NCBI RefSeq assembly: GCF_965641715.1
Contig: NZ_OZ282453.1
Direction: 5' to 3' (one strand)
DNA from: Escherichia coli
GTDB taxonomy: Bacteria; Pseudomonadota; Gammaproteobacteria; Enterobacterales; Enterobacteriaceae
DNA length: 64,000 bases
Position numbers and translations under genes: made by a program. Shown one piece after another: positions 1 to 25,785 of this stretch; position 1 is the first letter of the stretch, and the number at the start of each line of letters is the position of its first letter. A model generated the notes under the pieces. It ran no database searches. It was not told the origin of the DNA and worked only from the letters and a program-made list of their open reading frames with translations.

Positions 1-135
1 ACCGCGACCCTGAAAGTGGGGAAACTGTATATCGATTACGACTACACCCCCGTCCCGCCGCTGGAAAATCTGACCCTGCGCCAGCGCATCACCGATACCT
101 ATCTGGCGAACCTGTCAGACTCGGTCAACAGCTAA
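1..135 (+). CDS. P2-like phage tail sheath protein (gpFI-like), 3' end only, truncated by window edge
   Basis: Open frame from window start to TAA at about 133-135, directly upstream of the tail tube gene; assignment by P2 gene order (FI-FII), not by a recognisable motif. Confidence 0.45.
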
Positions 136-147
136 GGAGCTCTGAGC

Positions 148-666
148 ATGGCGTTACCCCGCAAACTGAAATACCTGAACATGTTCAACGATGGCCTCAG
201 CTATATGGGCGTTGTTGAATCCGTCACCCTGCCAAAACTGACCCGCAAGCTGGAGAAATATCGCGGCGGCGGAATGCCGGGGGCGGTGTCGGTTGACCTC
301 GGCCTCGATGATGATGCGCTGTCGCTTGAGTGGACGCTCGGTGGTCTGCCTGACATTGAATTGTGGGTGCAGTACGCCTCGCCGGGTGCTGACAGTGTGC
401 CGCTGCGCTTTACCAGCTCTTATCAGCGTGACGACACCGGCGCGATTTCTGCCGTCGAGGTAGTGATGCGTGGCCGTCATAAAGAATACGACGGCGGTGA
501 AAACAAGCAGGGCGAAAGCGGCACGACCAAAATGGCGACCGAGTGCGCCTATTACCAGCTCACGATTGATGGCAAAGAAGTCATCGAAATTGACGTGATC
601 AACATGGTGCTGAAAGTCGACGGTGTCGACCGTATGGCAGAGCATCGCAAGGCGATTGGCCTGTAA
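148..666 (+). CDS. P2-like phage tail tube protein (gpFII family)
   Basis: 172-aa ORF in track, same length as P2 FII; sits in conserved order FII-E-T-U-D-ogr. Confidence 0.85.
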   Translation: MALPRKLKYLNMFNDGLSYMGVVESVTLPKLTRKLEKYRGGGMPGAVSVDLGLDDDALSLEWTLGGLPDIELWVQYASPGADSVPLRFTSSYQRDDTGAISAVEVVMRGRHKEYDGGENKQGESGTTKMATECAYYQLTIDGKEVIEIDVINMVLKVDGVDRMAEHRKAIGL

Positions 667-720
667 TCCCTCAACCGGTCAGCGGGGCTGGCCGGTCACT
701 TACCCTGATGAGAAATTCGC

Positions 721-1035
721 ATGAAAAATATCAATGAAACTGCTGTTGCTGGCACTGAAAACGTCAATCCGAATGTCGTTATTTTTGACACGCCGCTGAT
801 GCGTGGTGAGCAGAAAATTGAACAGGTCACCTTAACCAAACCAAACGCGGGAACCCTGCGCGGGGTGTCGCTGGCCTCGCTGGCAAGTTCCGACGTTGAC
901 GCGCTGATTAAGGTGCTGCCGCGCATGACGTATCCGGCACTGACCGAGCACGAGCTCGCGCGTCTGGATGCGTCAGACCTGATTTCGCTGGCCGGTAAGG
1001 TGGTCGGTTTTTTGTCACCGGCTTCGGGTCGCTGA
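721..1035 (+). CDS. P2-like tail assembly chaperone (gpE family), zero-frame product
   Basis: 104-aa ORF between tail tube and tape measure genes; contains slippery T TTT TTG near its 3' end as in P2 E/E+E'. Confidence 0.75.
   Translation: MKNINETAVAGTENVNPNVVIFDTPLMRGEQKIEQVTLTKPNAGTLRGVSLASLASSDVDALIKVLPRMTYPALTEHELARLDASDLISLAGKVVGFLSPASGR
1008..1014 (+). other. Programmed -1 ribosomal frameshift site (T TTT TTG) producing E+E' fusion that would terminate near 1190
   Basis: Heptamer TTTTTTG in the E frame (codons GGT TTT TTG); the -1 frame stays open from the slip site to a TAA overlapping the tape measure start (about 1188-1190). Conserved chaperone frameshift of long-tailed phages (lambda G/GT, P2 E/E+E'). 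Confidence 0.65.
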
Positions 1036-1179
1036 CCTTCCCGGAAAAACTGTCGGTCGATGACCTGATGGCGGATATCGCGGTGATCTTCCACTGGCCG
1101 CCATCAGAGCTAAATTCCCTGAGCGTGACCGAGCTCCTGACATGGCGCGATAAGGCGCTGCAACGAAGCGGAAGCCATC

Positions 1180-3621
1180 ATGAGCAATAACGTCAGAATC
1201 GAGGTGCTGCTGAACGCAGTCGACCGGGCAAGCCGCCCGCTTAAAGCGATTCAGAACGCCAGCAAATCCCTGTCCGGTGATATCCGCAATTCACAAAAAA
1301 GCCTGCGCGAACTTAATGCGCAGGCGTCCCGTATTGACGGATTCCGCAAAGCCAGCGCACAGCTTGCCGTGACCGGTCACTCGCTTGAGAAAGCGAAACA
1401 GGAAGCGCAAGCCCTTGTCACGCAATTTAAAAACACCGAGCGCCCGACACGTGCGCAGGCGCAGGTGCTTGAATCGGCAAAGCGTGCCGCCGACGGGCTG
1501 CAGACGAAATACAACAGCCTAACTGAGTCTGTGAAACGCCAGCAACGCGAGCTCGGTGCTGTCGGGATTAATACCCGTAATCTGGCAAATGATGAGCGGG
1601 GGCTCAAATCGCGCATCAGTGAGACGACTGCGCAGCTCAATCGGCAGCGTGAGGCACTGGCGAAAGTCAGCGCACAGCAGGCAAAGTTAAGCCGGGTGAA
1701 AGCGCGGTATCAGGCCGGTAAATCGCTTGCCGGTAGCATGGCGGCGGCTGGCGCGGCCGGTGTCGGTATTGCGACAACAGGAACCATGGCCGGGGTCAAG
1801 CTGCTGACGCCGGGTTATGAATTTGCACAGAAAAACTCAAAGCTGCAGGCAGTGCTCGGTGTCGACAAACAGTCGCCTGAAATGCAGGCGCTGCGTAAAC
1901 AAGCGCGCCAGCTCGGTGACAATACCGCTGCCTCTGCCGATGATGCGGCGGGTGCGCAGATTATCATCGCGAAAAGCGGCGGTGATGCGGCGGCCATTCA
2001 GGCGGCGACGCCGGTCACACTGAATATGGCGCTGTCCAACAAGCGCACGATGGAAGAGAACGCCGCGCTGCTGACGGGCATGAAATCCGCTTTCCAGCTC
2101 TCTAACGATAAAGTCGCGCATATTGGCGATGTTCTCTCGATGACGATGAACAAAACCGCCGCTGACTTTGACGGGATGAGCGATGCGCTGACCTATACCG
2201 CGCCGGTGGCGAAAAATGCCGGGGTGAGTATCGAAGAAACCGCCGCGATGGTGGGGGCGCTGCACGATTCTAAAATCACCGGCTCGATGGCGGGTACAGG
2301 GAGCCGTGCCGTTCTGAGTCGCCTGCAGGCGCCGACCGGTAAAGCCTACGACGCCATCAAAGAGCTCGGCATTAAAACGAGCGACAGCAAAGGCAATACG
2401 CGCCCGATATTTTCCATCCTGAAGGAAATGCAGCGCAGTTTTGAGAAAAACAATCTCGGAACGGGTCAGAAAGCCGAATACATGAAAACCATTTTCGGTG
2501 AAGAAGCCAGCTCAGCGGCCGCTGTGCTGATGGCCGCCGCATCAAACGGCAAGCTCGACCAGCTCACCGCCGCGTTTAAAGCCTCGGACGGCAAGACTGA
2601 GGAGCTGGTTAAGGTTATGCAGGATAACCTCGGCGGCGACTTTAAAGAGTTTCAGTCAGCCTATGAGGCGGTTGGCACTGACCTGTTTGATCAGCAGGAG
2701 GGCTCACTGCGTAAGCTGACGCAGACGGCCACGCAATATGTGCTCAGGCTCGACGGCTGGATCCAGAAAAATAAAGGGCTGGCGACCACCATCGGCGTGG
2801 TGGTCGGGGGTGCGCTGGCGCTGATTGGTGTAATGGGCGGGATTGGCCTTGTCGCATGGCCGGTGGTAATGGGGATTAATGCCATCATTGCGGCGGCTGG
2901 CGTGCTCGGTGTGGTTTTCAGTACGGTTGGAGGCGCGATTGTCACGGCCATTGGCGCAATCAGCCTGCCGGTGCTGGCGGTTGCCGGTGCCGTGGTGGCC
3001 GGTGCGTTGCTGATCCGTAAATACTGGGAGCCGCTCGGTGCATTTTTCTCGGGCGTGGTGGAGGGACTGAAAGCCGCCTTTGCACCGGTGGGGGACATGT
3101 TTACCCCGCTCGCGCCGGTGTTTGACGCCATCGCTGAAAAGCTGGGTGTCGTCTGCCAGTGGTTTAAAGACCTGCTTGCGCCGGTGAAAGCCACGCAGGA
3201 CACGCTCTCCAGTTGCAAAAATGTCGGCGTTACTTTTGGTCAGGCGCTGGCTGATGCGCTGATGATGCCGCTCAAGATGTTTAACAGCCTGAGCGGCAAG
3301 GTCGGCTGGCTGCTGGAGAAACTCGGCGTTATCAAAAAAGAATCCAGCGACCTCGACCAGACCGCAGCGAAAGCGAATAAGGCGTCCCCGAATGGCGGGT
3401 ATATCCCTGCGACCGCAGGTTATGGCGGGTATCAGGCGTATCAGCCGGTCACAGCGCCCGCAGGCCTGTCTTATATCGACCAGAGCAAAAGCGAATACAA
3501 CATCAACCTGCAGGGCGGAGTCGCACCGGGCAGTGACCTTGACCGCCAGCTCCGTGACGCGGTCGACAAACTTGACCGCGAGAAACGTGCGCGTCAGCGA
3601 TCCAGTATGAGACTCGACTGA
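1180..3621 (+). CDS. P2-like phage tail tape measure protein (gpT family)
   Basis: 813-aa ORF; Ala/Gln/Lys-rich N-terminal half and long Gly/Ala/Val-rich hydrophobic segment; position between E/E' and U. Confidence 0.9.
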   Translation: MSNNVRIEVLLNAVDRASRPLKAIQNASKSLSGDIRNSQKSLRELNAQASRIDGFRKASAQLAVTGHSLEKAKQEAQALVTQFKNTERPTRAQAQVLESAKRAADGLQTKYNSLTESVKRQQRELGAVGINTRNLANDERGLKSRISETTAQLNRQREALAKVSAQQAKLSRVKARYQAGKSLAGSMAAAGAAGVGIATTGTMAGVKLLTPGYEFAQKNSKLQAVLGVDKQSPEMQALRKQARQLGDNTAASADDAAGAQIIIAKSGGDAAAIQAATPVTLNMALSNKRTMEENAALLTGMKSAFQLSNDKVAHIGDVLSMTMNKTAADFDGMSDALTYTAPVAKNAGVSIEETAAMVGALHDSKITGSMAGTGSRAVLSRLQAPTGKAYDAIKELGIKTSDSKGNTRPIFSILKEMQRSFEKNNLGTGQKAEYMKTIFGEEASSAAAVLMAAASNGKLDQLTAAFKASDGKTEELVKVMQDNLGGDFKEFQSAYEAVGTDLFDQQEGSLRKLTQTATQYVLRLDGWIQKNKGLATTIGVVVGGALALIGVMGGIGLVAWPVVMGINAIIAAAGVLGVVFSTVGGAIVTAIGAISLPVLAVAGAVVAGALLIRKYWEPLGAFFSGVVEGLKAAFAPVGDMFTPLAPVFDAIAEKLGVVCQWFKDLLAPVKATQDTLSSCKNVGVTFGQALADALMMPLKMFNSLSGKVGWLLEKLGVIKKESSDLDQTAAKANKASPNGGYIPATAGYGGYQAYQPVTAPAGLSYIDQSKSEYNINLQGGVAPGSDLDRQLRDAVDKLDREKRARQRSSMRLD

Positions 3622-3634
3622 GGGAGGGATAAAA

Positions 3635-4099
3635 ATGTTAATGGGGCTGGGCTTTTTCGTGTTTGAACGGCGCACCCTGCCGCATCAGTCAATGCAGTAT
3701 TCGAAGGACTACCGCTGGGTGTCAAATGACCGTATCGGAAAACCCCCGGCTTATCAGTATCTCGGGGAGGGGGAAACCTCGCGTACCCTGTCGGGCACGC
3801 TTTACCCTGAAATCACCGGCGGGCGTCTGTCACTGATGGCCATCGAACTGATGGCCGATGAGGGGCGCGCATGGCCGCTGATTGACGGAACCGGCATGAT
3901 CCACGGGATGTATGTCATCGATAAAGTGACTCACAACCACACCGAGTTATTCAGCGACGGCGCGGCTAAAAAAATCGAGTTTAGCCTGTCGCTTAAGCGG
4001 GTGGATGAATCCCTCGCGGCCATCTACGGCGACCTGAAAACGCAGGCTGATAATCTGGTCACGTCTGCCGGTAACTGGCTCGGGGGGCTGGCGGGATGA
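3635..4099 (+). CDS. P2-like phage tail protein (gpU family)
   Basis: 154-aa ORF immediately after tape measure and overlapping gpD start by 4 nt; P2 synteny. Confidence 0.8.
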   Translation: MLMGLGFFVFERRTLPHQSMQYSKDYRWVSNDRIGKPPAYQYLGEGETSRTLSGTLYPEITGGRLSLMAIELMADEGRAWPLIDGTGMIHGMYVIDKVTHNHTELFSDGAAKKIEFSLSLKRVDESLAAIYGDLKTQADNLVTSAGNWLGGLAG

Positions 4100-5259
4100 T
4101 AACGGGAATGACTATTCAGGCCGGGGCGCGCATTGCTCCTGATTTTATGCTCACGCTCGGTGGCGCAGATATCACACAGAATTTCAGCGACCGGCTTATC
4201 GGGCTGACCATGACCGACAATCGCGGATTCGAGGCTGACCAGCTTGATATCGAGCTCGATGATACCGATGGACTGGTCGAGCTGCCGCCGCGCGGGGCAT
4301 CGCTGACCCTGTGGCTGGGCTGGCAGGGCTCGGCGCTGATTAACAAAGGGAGTTTTACGGTTGACGAAATCGAGCACCGGGGCGCGCCTGACAGGCTGAC
4401 TATCCGGGGACGCAGTGCGGATTTTCGCGGGACGCTGAACTCGCGCCGCGAGCAGTCATGGCACGACACCACGCTCGGGGTGATTGTCGAGACTATCGCG
4501 CAGCGTAACAAACTGACGGCCAGCGTGGCTGATACCCTGAAAGCTGTTGCTGTGCCGCATATTGACCAGTCTCAGGAATCCGACGCGGCGTTTTTGTCCC
4601 GACTGGCGGATCGCAACGGGGCAACGGTTTCGGTCAAGGCCGGGAAATTGTTATTCCTGAAAGCCGGTAGCGCGATGACGGCCAGTGGTAAGGCCATCCC
4701 GCAAATGACCGTCGAACGCGGCGACGGCGACCGGCATCAGTTTGCCATAGCCGACCGCGAGGCATACTCCGGCGTAACCGCTAAATGGCTGCACACCAGA
4801 GACCCGAAACCGCAAAAGCAAAAGGTGAAGCTCAAGCGCAAACCCAAAGAGCAGCACCTGCGTGCGCTGCAGCACCCGAAGGTTGCTAAAACATCGGCAA
4901 AGGCTAAAAAGAAGAAGGTGCAGGAAGCGCGGGAAGGTGAGTATATGGCCGGTGAGTCCGACAATGTTCTGGAACTCACGACCATCTACGCGACAAAGGC
5001 GCAGGCCATGCGCGCAGCTCAGGCAAAGTGGGACAGGATACAGCGTGGGGTGGCGGAGTTTTCGATCACGCTCGCCACTGGCCGCGCTGATTTATTTCCT
5101 GAAACGCCGGTGGCAGTGAAAGGCTTTAAGCGCGTTATAGACGAGCAGGCGTGGATAATCAGTCGTGTGGTACACAGCCTCAACGGGAGCGGCTTCACGA
5201 CGGGCTTAGAGCTTGAGGTTAAGGTTTCTGATGTGGAGTATGAAAGCGAGGAAGTTTAA
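4096..5259 (+). CDS. P2-like phage tail protein D (gpD family)
   Basis: 387-aa ORF (same length as P2 gpD) with Lys-rich basic stretch; followed by ogr. K-12 retains only a remnant of this gene (yegZ) at this position. Confidence 0.85.
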   Translation: MITGMTIQAGARIAPDFMLTLGGADITQNFSDRLIGLTMTDNRGFEADQLDIELDDTDGLVELPPRGASLTLWLGWQGSALINKGSFTVDEIEHRGAPDRLTIRGRSADFRGTLNSRREQSWHDTTLGVIVETIAQRNKLTASVADTLKAVAVPHIDQSQESDAAFLSRLADRNGATVSVKAGKLLFLKAGSAMTASGKAIPQMTVERGDGDRHQFAIADREAYSGVTAKWLHTRDPKPQKQKVKLKRKPKEQHLRALQHPKVAKTSAKAKKKKVQEAREGEYMAGESDNVLELTTIYATKAQAMRAAQAKWDRIQRGVAEFSITLATGRADLFPETPVAVKGFKRVIDEQAWIISRVVHSLNGSGFTTGLELEVKVSDVEYESEEV

Positions 5260-5339
5260 CGGTGTGTGTTGTTTATGTGTTTGTTTTATAAATAAAAATT
5301 AGTAAAATTAACACATTGAATACGCCGGAGACCCTCATC

Positions 5340-5561
5340 ATGTTTCATTGTCCGAAATGCCATCATGCCGCCCACGCCCGCACGAGTCGCTATTTTACTG
5401 ATACCACAAAAGAGCGGTATCACCAGTGCACAAACATTAACTGCAGCTGCACGTTTGTGACCACTGAAACAGTCGAGCGTTTTATCGTGTCGCCGGGGGA
5501 AGTAGTACCCGCGCCGCCGCATCCGACATCATCAGGTCAGCAACAAATTCACTGGATGTGA
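5340..5561 (+). CDS. ogr: Ogr/Delta-family zinc-finger late-gene transcription activator
   Basis: 72-aa product MFHCPKCHHAAHARTSRYF...CTNINCSCTF with Cys4 zinc-finger spacing typical of P2 Ogr; ATG at 5340 inside track ORF 5316-5561. Confidence 0.9.
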   Translation: MFHCPKCHHAAHARTSRYFTDTTKERYHQCTNINCSCTFVTTETVERFIVSPGEVVPAPPHPTSSGQQQIHWM

Positions 5562-5571
5562 CAAACGAGAA

Positions 5572-5596
5572 AGCCCCGCGAATGCGGGGCTTTTTG
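5572..5596 (+). terminator. Rho-independent terminator downstream of ogr
   Basis: GC stem AGCCCCGC / GCGGGGCT with 4-nt loop followed by TTTTT, 10 nt after the ogr stop. Confidence 0.65.
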
Positions 5597-5866
5597 CAAC
5601 TTTTAGATCAGTTATGTTAAGTACATTTCCGTCGGCAAAGTGCCAGGAGCGGGTTCTAGAGAGTGACTAACGTTAGTTATATGTGTAAAATTCCTTAAAA
5701 ATAAGAAGGATATATATCCATGACAGCAATTGCATATTGGATTAACTGAGAATCAATTGAGAAATTTTTGGGGGGCAAAAAATAAACTAGCTAATTAAAT
5801 TTTTATAAATAACGAATATAAGACTGCAAGCCATTTAACAAAAGTTTATAAATAAAGGAGTCAGTT

Positions 5867-6718
5867 TTGAACAATATCCCCATATCTACTCAATGGACTT
5901 TAGACGCTACGGGTGAAGTTGGACGCTCATCAGTAAATTCTGTTTATATGATTATATGTCCTGCGACAGGCTCGAAAGGATCTGGTTTTTTAATAGATAA
6001 TGGGTTAATAGTAACGAACGAGCATGTTATCACTGGATGCTCTACAAATCAGATTTTCGCAATTTCAGCTTATGGACAGAAGATTCCAATTTCTCAAAAA
6101 TGGATAGATTCTGATCGCGATTTAGCTGTGCTGAGACCTGCCATTACCCAGACTGGTGGGCTAAGTATTGTTAAGGATAATGATCTTAAAGTTGGTGAAT
6201 CAGTAACAACTTGGGGATACCCATTAGGATACAACGGTCCTGCACCGTTACTATCCGTTGGTTATCTAGCAGGATTTAACTCATACCAAACCGCCAAGGG
6301 ACAAAAAAAACATCTAGTGGTAAATGGGGCATTTAACTCAGGAAATTCTGGTGGAGCTCTTTTAAAAGCTTCAGATAATAAAGTAATAGGTATTGTAGTG
6401 AGTAAGCATGCTCCTATCAGTCAATACCATCAATCAGCTATTGAAGCTTTGTCTGAAAATATGAGTGGCGTCACCTATACCGCTACTAATGACGCTGGAG
6501 AAACTAAAAGTTTTGTAGAATCTCAAATTGTAGCAGAATTATTGATTCATATGAGAAGTCTAACTCAAGTTATGATTGGAGAAGCAATTGCAGCAGAGGA
6601 ATTACTTTCGATGCTTAGCGAAATTGACTTGAGTCCACCACAATCTATGTCAAGAAATGCCTTATGTCATTGCGGGAGTGGAAAACGCTTCAAAGAATGT
6701 CATGGAAAGATATCCTAG
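5867..6718 (+). CDS. Prophage cargo protein: cytoplasmic HtrA/DegP-like (S1C, trypsin-fold) serine protease domain fused to C-terminal SEC-C zinc-binding motif
   Basis: 283-aa ORF with TTG start 6 nt after an AAGGAG Shine-Dalgarno. Motifs: GSGFLI...TNEHV (His about aa 53), DLAVL (Asp about aa 85), GNSGGAL (Ser about aa 161), as in the DegP/HtrA catalytic triad. C-terminus CHCGSGKRFKECHG matches the SecA SEC-C zinc motif. No signal peptide, no PDZ domain. Visibly AT-rich relative to flanks. Confidence 0.75.
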   Translation: MNNIPISTQWTLDATGEVGRSSVNSVYMIICPATGSKGSGFLIDNGLIVTNEHVITGCSTNQIFAISAYGQKIPISQKWIDSDRDLAVLRPAITQTGGLSIVKDNDLKVGESVTTWGYPLGYNGPAPLLSVGYLAGFNSYQTAKGQKKHLVVNGAFNSGNSGGALLKASDNKVIGIVVSKHAPISQYHQSAIEALSENMSGVTYTATNDAGETKSFVESQIVAELLIHMRSLTQVMIGEAIAAEELLSMLSEIDLSPPQSMSRNALCHCGSGKRFKECHGKIS

Positions 6719-6866
6719 TAAGTACTTATATCAGTCTGATAATGGCTCTTCAAATACAAAAGACTTCACTTACTCTGCCGTCATCTCTGCTCCTCGCTTA
6801 TTGCAGACGGTCAAAAGCTTACAAGCTGTTGACTAGATGTGTTCTTACATTGTCAGTTAAAACAAA

Positions 6867-6891
6867 AGCCCCGCAAATGCGGGGCTTTTTG
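6867..6891 (+). terminator. Rho-independent terminator downstream of the cargo gene (near-identical copy of the ogr terminator)
   Basis: Stem AGCCCCGC / GCGGGGCT, loop AAAT, then TTTTT; differs from the 5572-5596 hairpin essentially by one loop base. Confidence 0.65.
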
Positions 6892-6956
6892 TATCGATGT
6901 GGTCAATGTGTGGACATTGATAGAAATAAATCCATTTATTTCAGTAAGTTACATGC

Positions 6957-6983
6957 AAAAAATAAGCCCGTGTAAGGGAGATT
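6957..6983. other. P2-type attachment site core (prophage attR), identical to the 3' end of cyaR
   Basis: Sequence AAAAAATAAGCCCGTGTAAGGGAGATT matches the 27-nt P2 att core as I recall it; lies at the junction between prophage cargo and the host cyaR gene. Confidence 0.55.
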
Positions 6984-7043
6984 ACACAGGCTAAGGAGGT
7001 GGTTCCTGGTACAGCTAGCATTTTATGGGTTATGTTTTTCAGC
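6957..7043 (-). ncRNA. cyaR: CyaR (RyeE) Hfq-dependent sRNA
   Basis: Minus-strand sequence GCUGAAAAACAUAACCCAUAAAAUGCUAGCUGUACCAGGAACCACCUCCUUAGCCUGUGUAAUCUCCCUUACACGGGCUUAUUUUUU matches CyaR from memory, including the CCUCCU anti-SD loop and terminator; a TGTGA CRP half-site lies about 40 nt upstream. Confidence 0.8.
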
Positions 7044-7127
7044 GAAGCGGATGATAACCTTAATAAATGCAGCTGTATGTGATCGGTTTCTAAGAATTTT
7101 CCATCCGGGAAAAATAATCGAAATTAA

Positions 7128-8489
7128 TCACTTACCGTGGGGGTTACGCGTGGTTTCCCCGGAGAAATTACGCATCAGCAGCGCGTAATTTAGCTCAAGA
7201 TCCTGCGGCACCGGGAGCCACACAGTATAACCATCGCCTGGTGCTATCGGCATAGCTTCGCCTTTGGCGTTTTCCATGTGCTCAAGGGTAAAGTTAATGT
7301 TGCCTTGCGGCGTCATCAGCTCAAGGCTGTCGCCAACGGAGAATTTATTTTTCACCGCTACCGCCGCGAGGTCCCCCTTGCGCTCACCGGTAAACTCACC
7401 AACAAACTGCTGGCGGTCAGAAACCGAATAACCGTATTCGTAGTTCTGATAATCGTCGTGAGTATGACGACGCAGGAAACCTTCGGTATAGCCACGATGC
7501 GCCAGACCTTCCAGAGTTTCTAGCAGGCTGGTATCGAACGGTTTGCCCGCAGCGGCATCATCGATAGCTTTGCGGTAAACCTGTGCGGTGCGTGCGCAAT
7601 AGTAGAAAGATTTAGTACGGCCTTCGATTTTCAGCGAATGCACGCCCATTTTGGTCAGGCGTTCTACATGGGCGATGGCGCGCAGATCTTTCGAGTTCAT
7701 GATGTAAGTGCCGTGCTCATCTTCAAACGCGGTCATATACTCGCCCGGACGCTGGGCTTCTTCGATCATAAACACTTTGTCGGTTGGCGCGCCGATACCC
7801 AGCGTCGGCTCAACATTTTGCACCGGAATCGGCTCGTACTTGTGTACGATGTTGCCAACATCATCTTCTTTCCCTTCCTGGACGTTGTACTCCCAGCGGC
7901 AGGCGTTGGTGCAGGTACCCTGGTTCGGATCGCGCTTGTTGATATAGCCAGAGAGCAGGCAGCGACCGGAGTAGGCCATGCACAGTGCGCCGTGAACGAA
8001 GATCTCGATCTCCATATCCGGCACCTGATTGCGGATCTCTTCAATCTCTTCCAGCGACAGCTCGCGAGAGAGGATCACGCGGGTCAGGCCCATTTGCTGC
8101 CAGAATTTCACCGTTGCCCAGTTTACGGCGTTAGCCTGCACCGAGAGGTGGATCGGCATTTCAGGGAAGTGCTCACGCACCAGCATAATCAGCCCTGGAT
8201 CGGACATAATCAGCGCATCCGGCCCCATTTCCACCACCGGTTTCAGGTCACGGATAAAGGTTTTCAGCTTGGCGTTGTGCGGTGCAATGTTGACCACGAC
8301 ATAAAACTTTTTCCCCAGCGCGTGGGCTTCATTGATGCCGAGCTGAAGATTTTCGTGGTTGAATTCGTTGTTGCGCACACGCAGGGAGTAACGCGGCTGG
8401 CCCGCATAAACAGCATCTGCGCCATAAGCGAAAGCGTAACGCATATTTTTCAGCGTTCCCGCCGGGGAAAGGAGTTCCGGTTTAAACAT
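7128..8489 (-). CDS. rlhA: U32-family peptidase-like protein YegQ/RlhA (23S rRNA 5-hydroxycytidine synthase)
   Basis: 453-aa ORF recognised as E. coli YegQ (MFKPELLSPAGTLKNMRYAFAYGADAVYAGQPRYSLR...); conserved position next to cyaR. Confidence 0.9.
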   Translation of the reverse strand: MFKPELLSPAGTLKNMRYAFAYGADAVYAGQPRYSLRVRNNEFNHENLQLGINEAHALGKKFYVVVNIAPHNAKLKTFIRDLKPVVEMGPDALIMSDPGLIMLVREHFPEMPIHLSVQANAVNWATVKFWQQMGLTRVILSRELSLEEIEEIRNQVPDMEIEIFVHGALCMAYSGRCLLSGYINKRDPNQGTCTNACRWEYNVQEGKEDDVGNIVHKYEPIPVQNVEPTLGIGAPTDKVFMIEEAQRPGEYMTAFEDEHGTYIMNSKDLRAIAHVERLTKMGVHSLKIEGRTKSFYYCARTAQVYRKAIDDAAAGKPFDTSLLETLEGLAHRGYTEGFLRRHTHDDYQNYEYGYSVSDRQQFVGEFTGERKGDLAAVAVKNKFSVGDSLELMTPQGNINFTLEHMENAKGEAMPIAPGDGYTVWLPVPQDLELNYALLMRNFSGETTRNPHGK

Positions 8490-23848: not shown

Positions 23849-25785
23849 AACCCACTTTATATACTGCTACTGGTGAGTGCGTTACGCCAGGCCGTGAACT
23901 GGGCAAAGGCGGTGAAGGTGCGGTTTATGATATCGAGGAGTTTGCCGATAGCGTCGCCAAGATTTATCACACGCCGCCACCCGCCTTAAAACAGGACAAA
24001 CTTGCCTTTATGGCTGCGACAGCTGACGCGCAGTTGTTGAATTATGTCGCCTGGCCGCAGGCAACGCTTCACGGTGGACGAGGCGGAAAAGTTATCGGTT
24101 TTATGATGCCAAAAGTTTCTGGTAAAGAACCGATTCATATGATCTATAGCCCGGCACATCGTCGCCAGAGTTACCCTCATTGTGCGTGGGATTTTCTACT
24201 CTATGTTGCGCGCAATATTGCTTCATCTTTTGCTACGGTTCACGAGCACGGGCACGTCGTGGGTGACGTAAACCAGAACAGCTTTATGGTAGGTCGCGAC
24301 AGCAAAGTGGTGTTGATCGATAGTGACTCCTTTCAGATTAACGCCAATGGCACACTGCATTTATGCGAAGTCGGCGTGTCGCATTTTACGCCGCCAGAGC
24401 TACAAACCTTGCCATCATTTGTCGGTTTTGAACGTACCGCGAATCACGATAATTTTGGCCTTGCGTTGCTGATTTTTCACGTCTTGTTTGGTGGGCGGCA
24501 TCCTTATTCTGGTGTGCCGCTTATCTCTGATGCGGGTAATGCGCTGGAGACGGATATTGCCCATTTCCGTTATGCCTACGCGTCAGATAATCAGCGACGT
24601 GGTTTAAAACCGCCGCCACGATCTATTCCGCTGTCGATGTTACCGGGAGATGTTGAAGCCATGTTTCAGCAGGCATTCACGGAAAGTGGCGTGGCAACGG
24701 GGCGTCCGACGGCAAAAGCGTGGGTAGCGGCACTTGATTTACTACGCCAACAGTTAAAGAAATGTACCGTTTCGGCAATGCATGTTTACCCCGGTCATTT
24801 GACTGACTGCCCGTGGTGTGCGCTGGATAATCAAGGCGTTATCTATTTTATTGATCTCGGCGAAGAGGTCATTACCACCAGCGGTGATTTTGTGCTGACG
24901 AAAGTCTGGGCGATGGTGATGGCGTCAGTAGCACCGCCAGCATTGCAATTGCCATTACCCGATCATTTCCAACCGACTGGCAGGCCGCTTCCTTTAGGCC
25001 TGTTACGGCGCGAATACATCATTCTGATTGAGATCGCACTGTCAGCGTTATCGCTGTTGCTTTGCGGCCTTCAGGCAGAACCGCGTTATATTATTTTGGT
25101 TCCTGTGCTGGCGGCTATCTGGATTATTGGCAGTCTGACAAGCAAAGCTTATAAAGCAGAAATCCAGCAACGCCGTGAGGCATTTAATCGCGCGAAAATG
25201 GACTATGACCATTTAGTCAGCCAGATCCAACAGTTGGGCGGGCTGGAAGGTTTTATCGCCAAACGGACGATGCTCGAAAAAATGAAGGAAGAAATTCTCG
25301 GGTTACCGGAAGAAGAAAAACGTGCTCTGGCAGCACTTCACGACACTGCAAGGGAACGGCAGAAGCAGAAGTTTCTGGAGGGATTTTTTATTGATGCTGC
25401 CTCTATTCCCGGCGTTGGTCCTGCGCGTAAAGCGGCGTTACGGTCTTTTGGTATTGAAACAGCAGCGGATGTTACCCGTCGTGGCGTTAAGCAAGTTAAA
25501 GGGTTTGGCGACCATCTGACCCAGGCGGTTATCGACTGGAAAGCGAGCTGTGAACGCCGTTTTGTGTTCAGGCCGAACGAAGCGGTAACGCCAGCAGACA
25601 GACAGGCGGTAATGGCGAAAATGGCCGCCAAACGACATCGGCTGGAATCGGCGTTGACTGTCGGCGCGACAGAGTTGCAGCGATTCCGCCTTCATGCTCC
25701 AGCACGGACCATGCCGTTGATGGAACCGTTACGTCAGGCGGCAGAAAAACTGGCTCAGGCGCAGGCAGATTTAAGCCGCTGCTGA
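23836..25785 (+). CDS. yegI: Eukaryotic-like Ser/Thr protein kinase YegI
   Basis: 649-aa ORF (alternative ATG at about 23845); kinase-like N-terminal region, predicted TM segment mid-protein and coiled-coil C-terminal part; overlaps yegK by 13 nt. Confidence 0.9.
   Translation: MVTMKPTLYTATGECVTPGRELGKGGEGAVYDIEEFADSVAKIYHTPPPALKQDKLAFMAATADAQLLNYVAWPQATLHGGRGGKVIGFMMPKVSGKEPIHMIYSPAHRRQSYPHCAWDFLLYVARNIASSFATVHEHGHVVGDVNQNSFMVGRDSKVVLIDSDSFQINANGTLHLCEVGVSHFTPPELQTLPSFVGFERTANHDNFGLALLIFHVLFGGRHPYSGVPLISDAGNALETDIAHFRYAYASDNQRRGLKPPPRSIPLSMLPGDVEAMFQQAFTESGVATGRPTAKAWVAALDLLRQQLKKCTVSAMHVYPGHLTDCPWCALDNQGVIYFIDLGEEVITTSGDFVLTKVWAMVMASVAPPALQLPLPDHFQPTGRPLPLGLLRREYIILIEIALSALSLLLCGLQAEPRYIILVPVLAAIWIIGSLTSKAYKAEIQQRREAFNRAKMDYDHLVSQIQQLGGLEGFIAKRTMLEKMKEEILGLPEEEKRALAALHDTARERQKQKFLEGFFIDAASIPGVGPARKAALRSFGIETAADVTRRGVKQVKGFGDHLTQAVIDWKASCERRFVFRPNEAVTPADRQAVMAKMAAKRHRLESALTVGATELQRFRLHAPARTMPLMEPLRQAAEKLAQAQADLSRC

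Follow-up and report, generated by a model that had tools for sequence, protein, structure and literature searches.

Two near-identical terminator-like hairpins flank a variable cargo slot between ogr and attP in a P2-like prophage of Escherichia coli

The 64,000-nucleotide (nt) stretch of Escherichia coli DNA analysed here (contig NZ_OZ282453.1 of assembly GCF_965641715.1; hereafter the window) begins with the right end of a P2-like prophage, which covers positions 1-6983 and lies at the yegQ/cyaR site. The features of this region follow one another in the order tape-measure gene, gpU, gpD, ogr, a first hairpin (HP1), AT-rich cargo with a protease gene, a second hairpin (HP2), the arm-type sites of the integrase (Int) in the P arm of the phage attachment site (attP), the att core, cyaR and yegQ/trhP (Table 1). 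The ogr gene has 72% DNA identity to ogr of phage P2, and relatives are encoded in 387 viral contigs. The P-arm sites are near-identical to the P2 feature annotated as 'protein_bind Int, P arm' (24293-24320) and are conserved in all related loci. Prophage-free E. coli genomes align to the window from 6957 onward only, which places the prophage/host junction at the att core. Here, we describe the interval between ogr and the P arm, compare it with its counterparts in related phages, and propose a model for the presence of two hairpins in the window.

Table 1 Features of the right end of the P2-like prophage and of the adjoining host DNA.
Feature	Position	Strand	Basis
gpD-type late control/tail gene, last gene of the tail (F) operon	4096-5259	+	Open reading frame (ORF) list; RefSeq 'phage late control D family protein' in the identical region of strain AR_0137
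ogr, zinc-finger activator of late transcription, 73 amino acids (aa)	5340-5561	+	Translation; RefSeq 'DNA-binding transcriptional regulator'
HP1, ogr-proximal putative intrinsic-terminator hairpin; stem AAAGCCCCGC/GCGGGGCTTT, loop GAAT, T5 tail	5570-5596		Repeat search, folding, P2 equivalent
'L-box', conserved segment of ~58 nt after HP1, ending ...GCAAAGTGCCAGGAGCGG	5597-5655	+	Alignment, pattern search
Transferable cargo unit, made up of the promoter region, the protease gene and ~40 nt on its 3' side	5645-6757	+	Identity to Klebsiella locus; GC profile
Sigma-70-like promoter candidate, GTGACT-17-TAAAAT	5663-5691	+	9/12 consensus positions; number of sites in the region not above shuffled expectation
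Trypsin-like (S1/Trypsin_2) serine protease with C-terminal SEC-C metal-binding motif, 283 aa	5867-6718	+	ORF list, domain matches
'R-box', conserved segment of ~80 nt before HP2	6783-6864	+	MAFFT alignment
HP2, att-proximal putative terminator hairpin; loop AAAT, A-rich 5' and T-rich 3' flanks	6865-6891		Repeat search, folding
Int arm-type binding sites, attP P arm, direct repeats ATGTGGTCA / TGTGTGGAC	6895-6916	+	Near-identity to P2 feature
P2 att core AAAAAATAAGCCCGTGTAAGGGAGATT, 27 nt, prophage/host junction (attR)	6957-6983		Identical to annotated P2 attP core
cyaR (ryeE), host small RNA gene	6960-7045	-	Rfam RF00112, 100.7 bits, E = 1.9e-20
yegQ/trhP, host gene	7128-8489	-	ORF list; RefSeq annotation of K-12 and AR_0137

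The two hairpins are copies of a 27-nt repeat, AAAGCCCCGC[G/A]AATGCGGGGCTTTTTG, with 26 of 27 positions identical. The repeat can also be written as AAAGCCCCGC-NAAT-GCGGGGCTTTTTG, and the sole difference between the copies is the first base of the loop, which is G5580 in HP1 and A6875 in HP2. HP1 starts 8 nt past the ogr stop codon (5559-5561). HP2 starts 147 nt past the stop codon of the protease gene (6716-6718), and 4 nt separate its end from the Int P-arm repeats. The flanks of the two copies are unrelated, 'caaacgag' versus 'gttaaaaca' on the left and 'caactttt' versus 'tatcgatg' on the right. The initial annotation of this DNA had described such a repeat with one deviating loop base and unrelated flanks, and this description is accurate, the repeat being two bases wider than was then noticed. 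An independent E. coli strain, AR_0137, carries the same two hairpins.

Both copies fold strongly, with free energies of -21.5 and -20.8 kcal/mol (z = -5.7 and -6.3) for HP1 and HP2, respectively. They have stems of 10-12 bp with seven G-C pairs and 4-nt loops, and in each of them the stem is preceded by an A run and followed by a T run. On the + strand the sequence TTTTTG stands behind both stems. On the - strand the T run is TTTTGTTTT for HP2 and a weaker TTTCTCGTTT for HP1. Each hairpin is located at the 3' end of a transcription unit, HP1 after ogr and HP2 after the protease gene. Both are predicted to be strong terminators, and HP2, because its 5' flank is A-rich and its 3' flank T-rich, is predicted to function well in both directions. 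When up to three mismatches are allowed, HP1 and HP2 are the only matches to the motif in the window, and none of 100 shuffled sequences gave any. The exact motif was found in 28 stretches among 2.9 million viral contigs, 18 of which lie directly after ogr, while about ten are unrelated terminators. The rarity of the motif and the lack of matches in shuffled sequences make a chance identity of HP1 and HP2 very unlikely, and common descent or sequence exchange would account for it, although the hairpin is of a common terminator type.

Cargo-free phages of the P2 type have a single hairpin at this place, as the initial annotation had expected of a canonical P2 end. Phage P2 (GenBank AF063097) has an annotated 'terminator for ogr transcript and F operon' at 24265-24288, and the Int P arm lies 4 nt beyond it. 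In P2, int and C are read from the other strand, across attP and toward ogr, so that the single hairpin is placed to terminate both convergent units. The ogrK remnant of K-12, at the same locus, comprises ogr, one hairpin, the arm and the core. One hairpin, with the arm at +39 to +41, is also found in 41 of 44 viral contigs that have a P2-identical Ogr and downstream sequence. Of 5,426 complete E. coli genomes, 1,125 contain an uninterrupted match to a synthetic junction from which the cargo was deleted (ogr-hairpin-arm-core-yegQ). Strain T-HYM1 (90% identity), which is the closest relative without cargo, matches the window up to HP1 on the left and from HP2 onward on the right. Compared with the cargo-free genomes, the window has gained one hairpin and about 1.27 kb. 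The P2 terminator resembles the hairpins of the window in starting 8-10 nt past the ogr stop codon, in the A run and the T run on either side of its GC-rich stem, and in its distance to the Int arm sites; the arm, the IHF region and the core sequence downstream of it are also the same. However, it exists in a single copy with the stem CCCCTC/GAGGGG, whereas the window has two copies with the stem CCCCGC/GCGGGG and foreign DNA between them.

The interval was compared across a sample of 80 viral contigs that encode close relatives of the window Ogr (loci are designated below by their L numbers). Among 29 loci with a recognisable P2-type arm, 26 have an insert of 0.4-4.9 kb with one hairpin on its ogr side and another on its arm side. 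About 40 distinct, unrelated cargo clusters were found in the ogr-arm interval (~60 loci, within a set of 160 related viral contigs), and a GC-rich hairpin at a fixed distance always precedes the arm. The two arrangements by which the initial annotation was to be checked, a single hairpin without cargo and hairpin-cargo-hairpin with different cargos, therefore both exist. Among 36 distinct flanks to the right of the ogr hairpin, the information content has fallen to about zero 3-8 nt past the stem, often after TTTGTAT(C), the sequence that also stands before the arm in cargo-free phages. Among 25 distinct left flanks of the arm hairpin, it is about zero until the hairpin itself. Furthermore, 108 phage records lose homology to the window at 5593-5596, one of them running about 8 nt further. 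One hairpin without cargo, two hairpins with cargo, and homology that ends at the hairpins indicate together that the ogr-attP gap is a cargo hotspot bounded by a split terminator. There is good support for the view that a single terminator has given rise to the two that enclose the cargo slot.

In the papers covered by the literature search, A/Q and G/FI are the only variable loci described for P2-like phages (PMC3573123; PMC9519451; PMC9122126), and full-text searches found no description of an ogr-attP slot or of a duplicated ogr terminator. Like the anti-phage hotspots of P2 and P4 (Rousset et al. 2022, PMC9122126; Vassallo et al. 2022, PMC9519451), the ogr-P arm interval is a small locus of high turnover between conserved phage anchors, and many of its cargo proteins, including the PDC-M35A match in the window, resemble defence proteins. 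Unlike these hotspots, the slot is next to attP and not next to cos or the tail-fibre region, and its anchors are a pair of hairpins and not two genes. Adjacency to cos, which has been proposed for hotspot 1 (PMC9122126), is not a property of this slot, cos being elsewhere in the P2 map. The representative cargo proteins include PtuA, an ApeA-like HEPN protein (which also corresponds to PDC-S58), two TIR proteins, AbiTii, and NsnA-like and PD-T4-6-like proteins, and also a sulfatase and an EAL phosphodiesterase. PADLOC models were matched (E < 1e-5) by seven of 20 representative cargo proteins, those from PtuA to the PD-T4-6-like protein in the list above, and by the window protease, a count with no control set beside it. 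Several large cargo ORFs (for example of 824, 495, 477 and 473 aa) have no match and could be new systems.

The arm-side hairpins were folded sequence by sequence, their loop lengths being unequal. All 26 distinct arm-proximal sequences fold, with a mean of -15.9 kcal/mol and a mean z of -5.1. Their stems vary by compensatory changes (CCCCGC/GCGGGG, CCCCTC/GAGGGG, CCCTGC/GCAGGG, CCTCGC/GCGAGG and AACCCGC/GCGGGTT) while the spacing to the arm is fixed. This pattern points to selection for a hairpin at the exact arm-side position, inherited with the att module. A runs and T runs were counted on the GC-core stems. Arm-side hairpins have an upstream A run of 5.35/8 versus a downstream T run of 4.09/8 (Wilcoxon p = 0.004), and the downstream T value of ogr-side hairpins, 5.02, is above that of the arm side (Mann-Whitney p = 0.008); since the loci are related to one another, these p-values are optimistic and the directionality statistics are indicative only. 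The upstream A run of an arm-side hairpin is the U run for leftward transcripts. The counts are consistent with a split of the dual role, in which arm-side hairpins would favour leftward and ogr-side hairpins rightward termination.

Where the loop is asymmetric, the form (A/G)AAT is present in 13 of 13 ogr-side hairpins, and its reverse complement, ATT(T/C), in five of nine arm-side hairpins. Because arm-side loops are often inverted, a direct duplication is not a general signature of this site. Loops that look flipped on the same palindromic stem (ATTT or ATTC versus AAAT or GAAT) were seen on the arm side of L005, L037, L042, L059 and L060; HP2 of the window is not flipped. The similarity of the two hairpins of one genome is 13.6, compared with 12.5 +/- 0.6 for random pairings (23 distinct genomes; permutation p = 0.03), and the window pair is the most extreme of the same-genome comparison. 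In L271, which has a canonical P2 ogr with cargo, the two hairpins are clearly different.

The cargo of the window is AT-rich, with a guanine-cytosine (GC) content of 29-44% (200-nt segments, 5600-6900) versus 54-63% in the tail genes. The protease gene has a TTG start codon with an AAGGAG ribosome-binding site ahead of it. Precomputed Pfam matches of the identical protein are PF13365, PF00089 and PF02810, and NCBIfam matches to HtrA/MarP-type domains lie below the cutoff. The protein matches PADLOC PDC-M35A and the protease domain of RT-Protease_XI, and it may for this reason be a defence or abortive-infection effector. The transferable unit has 86.3% DNA identity over 1,116 nt to the chromosome of Klebsiella michiganensis (L123/L124). 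There it sits between an SRAP gene and umuDC, near a TIR gene, and neither hairpin flanks it, which indicates that the cargo did not bring the hairpin. In the window the ends of the unit fall short of HP1 and HP2 by about 50 and 108 nt, respectively. The initial annotation had placed the boundaries of the cassette at the hairpins; this is true of the population as a whole, in which conservation stops at the outer edges of the hairpins, but not of the protease unit. The protease was also observed as a single-gene unit in other, highly dissimilar variable contexts, namely a Yersinia prophage near lysis genes, a Microbulbifer chromosome, and Vibrio (L125, L127); the homologues in Yersinia and Microbulbifer are more distant than the Klebsiella copy.

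A moron, a concept attributed to Juhala and Hendrix, is reportedly an additional gene of tailed phages that brings a promoter and a terminator of its own and stands between conserved genes. The window cargo resembles morons in being an extra gene of deviating, AT-rich composition between conserved neighbours, which is absent from close relatives (it is present at 99.8% identity or more in 34 of 5,426 E. coli genomes), with a promoter-like site and with a terminator behind it. The promoter-like site, a 9/12 consensus match, lies inside the transferable unit; the terminator does not travel with the unit. The window cargo is unlike morons in that the terminator behind it belongs to the phage frame, and in that its slot is the ogr-attP gap, not A/Q or G/FI (PMC3573123; PMC9519451).

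Two further conserved segments, the L-box and the R-box, lie inside the hairpins. The L-box is common to at least eight loci with differing cargo and was found only after ogr and its hairpin. The R-box is common to the other-cargo loci L005, L031, L033 and L060 and, weakly, L072. L-box/R-box segments are present in L005, L017, L023, L031, L033, L049-L053, L060 and L066. An R-box profile built without the window sequence matches the window at 6787-6864 with E = 8e-11. The same profile scores 6.6 bits on the 3' flank of the Klebsiella protease gene, which ranks seventh among 3,000 shuffles, and it is suggestive, though not established, that the R-box travels with the protease gene. As different cargos share the L-box and the R-box, cargo replacement in this sub-lineage has occurred inside a frame made of HP1, L-box, cargo, R-box and HP2. 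No 'empty frame', in which the L-box is joined directly to the R-box, was found in the complete E. coli genomes. A 14-nt tandem duplication (TAATAACATGACCG / TAATCACATGACCG) was noticed inside the L-box of L031 (6260-6300) and L033.

Several identities were considered for these boxes and rejected. As long terminal inverted repeats they give a local alignment score of 19, compared with 15.2 +/- 2.3 and a maximum of 26 for shuffles; at their inner ends, 24-nt cores form a weak inverted repeat, 19/24 in three loci, with nhmmer E of about 2. The L-box has no likeness beyond shuffles to the P arm of P2 or of the window, of which it might have been a diverged form from another integrase type, and the R-box has none to the 3' end of ogr, of which it might have been a remnant. 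The L-core does not behave as a mobile element: in viral contigs it is found only after ogr, apart from five unrelated matches in GC-rich DNA, and a scan of genome contigs gave 109 matches versus 139 expected by chance, none of them beside ogr. An ERIC-like element was also rejected, ERIC primer sequences being absent from the window and the perceived likeness being in the cargo-specific part, which is not conserved across loci. For an integron attC site, no conserved GTTRRRY core was seen in the L-box, the R-box and the hairpins, which were read by eye without a pattern search, and in the integrase screen, limited to the ogr-att interval, the sole gene was the protease gene.

We propose that HP1 and HP2 are two copies of one ancestral bidirectional Rho-independent terminator, which insulate the cargo slot on both sides, and we give this reading a probability of roughly 60%. 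In cargo-free P2-type phages this terminator fills the whole gap from the ogr stop codon to the Int arm sites, and in the window prophage an accessory segment of about 1.27 kb occupies this gap. HP1, kept with ogr, would stop transcription of ogr and of the tail operon ahead of the cargo. HP2, kept with the P arm, would stop cargo transcription ahead of attR and cyaR, and it would also stop leftward transcription before this enters the cargo in antisense. The source of leftward transcription would be the C-int operon in the circular phage and the host side, by read-through of cyaR, in the prophage. With a hairpin on each side stopping transcription, the pair may act as insulators that make the ogr-attP gap safe for foreign genes. 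The hairpins would be the outer frame of the slot and not the crossover points of the latest cargo exchange, and the protease unit would have been swapped in within the L-box/R-box frame by probably illegitimate recombination. A single ancient duplication at the hairpin would have been followed by selection and possibly by gene conversion. As to the origin of the duplication, a single crossover of a circular intermediate fits a repeat that consists of the hairpin and a few flanking bases, and so do unequal crossing-over and the joining of the modules of two phages at their terminators. The near-identity of the window pair could be due to a recent event or to gene conversion.

Several points weigh against this proposal. 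Termination and insulation are predictions from sequence alone, and the statistics on directionality are modest and come from related loci. Many arm-side hairpins are without a good T run and hence may be poor + strand terminators for the cargo. The 26/27 identity exceeds what structural selection needs, so that the model needs one more, hypothetical event, be it a recent duplication, gene conversion, or recombination at the hairpin. Finally, the L-box and the R-box are features of the slot that lie outside the model.

The hairpin could instead be an active recombination linker of the PeSL kind, at which short-homology recombination, either between the hairpins of different molecules or between HP1 and HP2, inserts, deletes and swaps cargo, and the repeat would then be the footprint of a Campbell-type or unequal crossover. 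We consider this rather unlikely. It would account for the exact position, at the hairpin, of the differences between cargo-free and cargo-bearing relatives, for the coincidence of the breakpoints of the 36 HP1 right flanks and 25 HP2 left flanks with the hairpin edges, for the left junction, which often keeps TTTGTAT(C) so that about 30 nt are duplicated, and for the near-identity of the window pair. However, selection by itself would also lead to breakpoints at the hairpin, since no other position in the gap is permissive. The protease unit, which is the only cargo with mappable donor-side boundaries, ends well inside the hairpins, and the inner boxes shared by several cargos likewise place the exchange inside them. 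Hairpin similarity within genomes is barely above that between genomes, and the reverse-complement loops on the arm side are not expected from direct-repeat recombination. Moreover, no cargo-free derivative at 98% identity or more was found among the 5,426 E. coli genomes, and there is thus no sign of a precise hairpin-by-hairpin loss. The suggestion of the initial annotation that the cassette was inserted by recombination at the terminator, or that the hairpin is a hotspot for cargo exchange, is partly supported: it agrees with the breakpoints at the hairpin edges and is at odds with the boundaries of the protease unit, the weak pair similarity, the inverted loops and the missing derivatives; a recombination hotspot at the hairpin is possible but unproven. 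The precedent for such a linker is the shuffling and formation of mini-circles mediated by PeSLs in T4-type phages (Arbiol et al. 2010, PMC2839356). Common to these phages and the window is a terminator stem-loop that recurs on either side of non-essential ORFs, in a hyperplastic region, and marks indel differences between related phages. However, PeSLs are composites of promoter and stem-loop, have many copies per genome and form demonstrated mini-circles (PMC2839356), whereas the window has two copies and only the 27-nt stem-loop is repeated, with no promoter in the repeat. Indel ends coincide with the hairpin in comparison with cargo-free phages and across the population, but not for the protease unit, and these comparisons are without a near-isogenic pair.

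Some rearrangements at the hairpin do speak for a linker. In L271 the canonical P2 ogr and HP1 are joined to foreign cargo, HP2, arm and core, with the mosaic joint at the hairpin, and L042 carries three hairpins and two cargo units. Together, the L271 mosaic and the tandem modules of L042 indicate that rearrangements of whole hairpin-att modules do occur. The tandem att modules of L042 (6715-7760; the same in L045) begin with a hairpin, a P arm, an IHF region and only the left half of the P2 core; after about 800 bp of other DNA there follow another hairpin and another P arm, the core of which is different. These modules look like a relic of att-module replacement or of the capture of att-adjacent DNA. 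An attempt to map a crossover through the same cargo on different ogr lineages failed, the L271 cargo not being DNA-homologous to the similar-looking cluster. The junction of hairpin and arm is, in L014 and L016, the exact insertion point of a group II intron. The hairpin is thus recognised as a target by at least one class of element, which also favours a linker. In L014 (6640-7084; the same in L016) the intron begins with GTGCG directly after the hairpin AAAGCCCCGCATTTGCGGGGCTTTTTGTAT (...GCGGGGCTTTTTGTAT), where the P arm should begin, and it is identified by Rfam RF02001 (135.9 bits), RF01998 (70.5 bits) and a reverse-transcriptase ORF. Group IIC introns habitually insert after terminators, and the position of the intron in L014 and L016 fits this habit.

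A wider scheme, which seems to us improbable, makes HP2 a functional element of the P2 integration module and, in the circular phage, the 3' end of the leftward C-int transcript, under a sib-like control that depends on position, and unites it with HP1, the L-box and the R-box in a docking frame by which P2-like phages would capture and exchange single-gene defence cargos, with the hairpins as PeSL-like linkers that would release cargo circles. The retroregulation of lambda by sib serves here as a positional analogy: in both cases a hairpin is on the far side of attP from int, so that the int transcript would include it in the circular phage but not in the prophage. RNase III processing and control of int belong to sib, and the likeness of the window is positional only.

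It is quite improbable that the hairpins are two independent terminators, HP1 owned by the phage and HP2 brought as the terminator of the cargo moron, which would have converged on a common enterobacterial type. The exact 25-nt motif does serve as a terminator in about ten unrelated viral contigs, HP2 is clearly unlike HP1 in many loci, and morons classically bring their own terminator (PMC3573123). However, the Klebsiella copy of the cargo is without such a hairpin, and the R-box and hairpin are absent from the protease unit in the three contexts examined. In addition, the distance of HP2 to the P arm is constant irrespective of the cargo, and HP2 has the position of the single hairpin of cargo-free phages; the motif is too rare for a chance identity of 26/27. 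A transposase-like or integrase-like enzyme could have produced the repeat as a target-site duplication by cutting on either side of the hairpin, but this reading is largely refuted and has hardly any probability left. A direct repeat of about 27-33 nt does flank the insert, and the inner ends of the L-box and R-box do form inverted repeats, but these are statistically weak by both measures given above. The 1.3 kb insert has no transposase, integrase or terminal inverted repeat, the protease gene being its only sizeable ORF, and the repeat is not systematic across genomes. To our knowledge, a duplication of 27-33 nt far exceeds those of known transposons.

On the host side of the junction, the 3' end and the terminator of cyaR overlap the P2 att core, and cyaR transcription points toward the prophage. 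The terminator-like site of cyaR is at 6992-6965. Because of this overlap, integration rebuilds the end of cyaR from phage sequence. In an Rfam scan of 5200-7200 only CyaR reaches the gathering score, and the other matches are generic terminator hits.

The split-terminator slot is a variation on the known biology of phage morons and hotspots, the general picture of which is unchanged. It offers a concrete case of cargo added in a 35-nt gap between two essential functions, to which a terminator on each side is the apparent solution. P2-like prophages are among the commonest prophages of E. coli, and their two described variable loci are major anti-phage reservoirs. Our data indicate a third slot in P2-like phages, between ogr and attP, many cargos of which look like defence genes. 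The slot has simple anchors, the ogr stop codon with a hairpin on one side and a hairpin with the Int arm repeats on the other, and these would permit cheap mining of further candidate defence or fitness genes.

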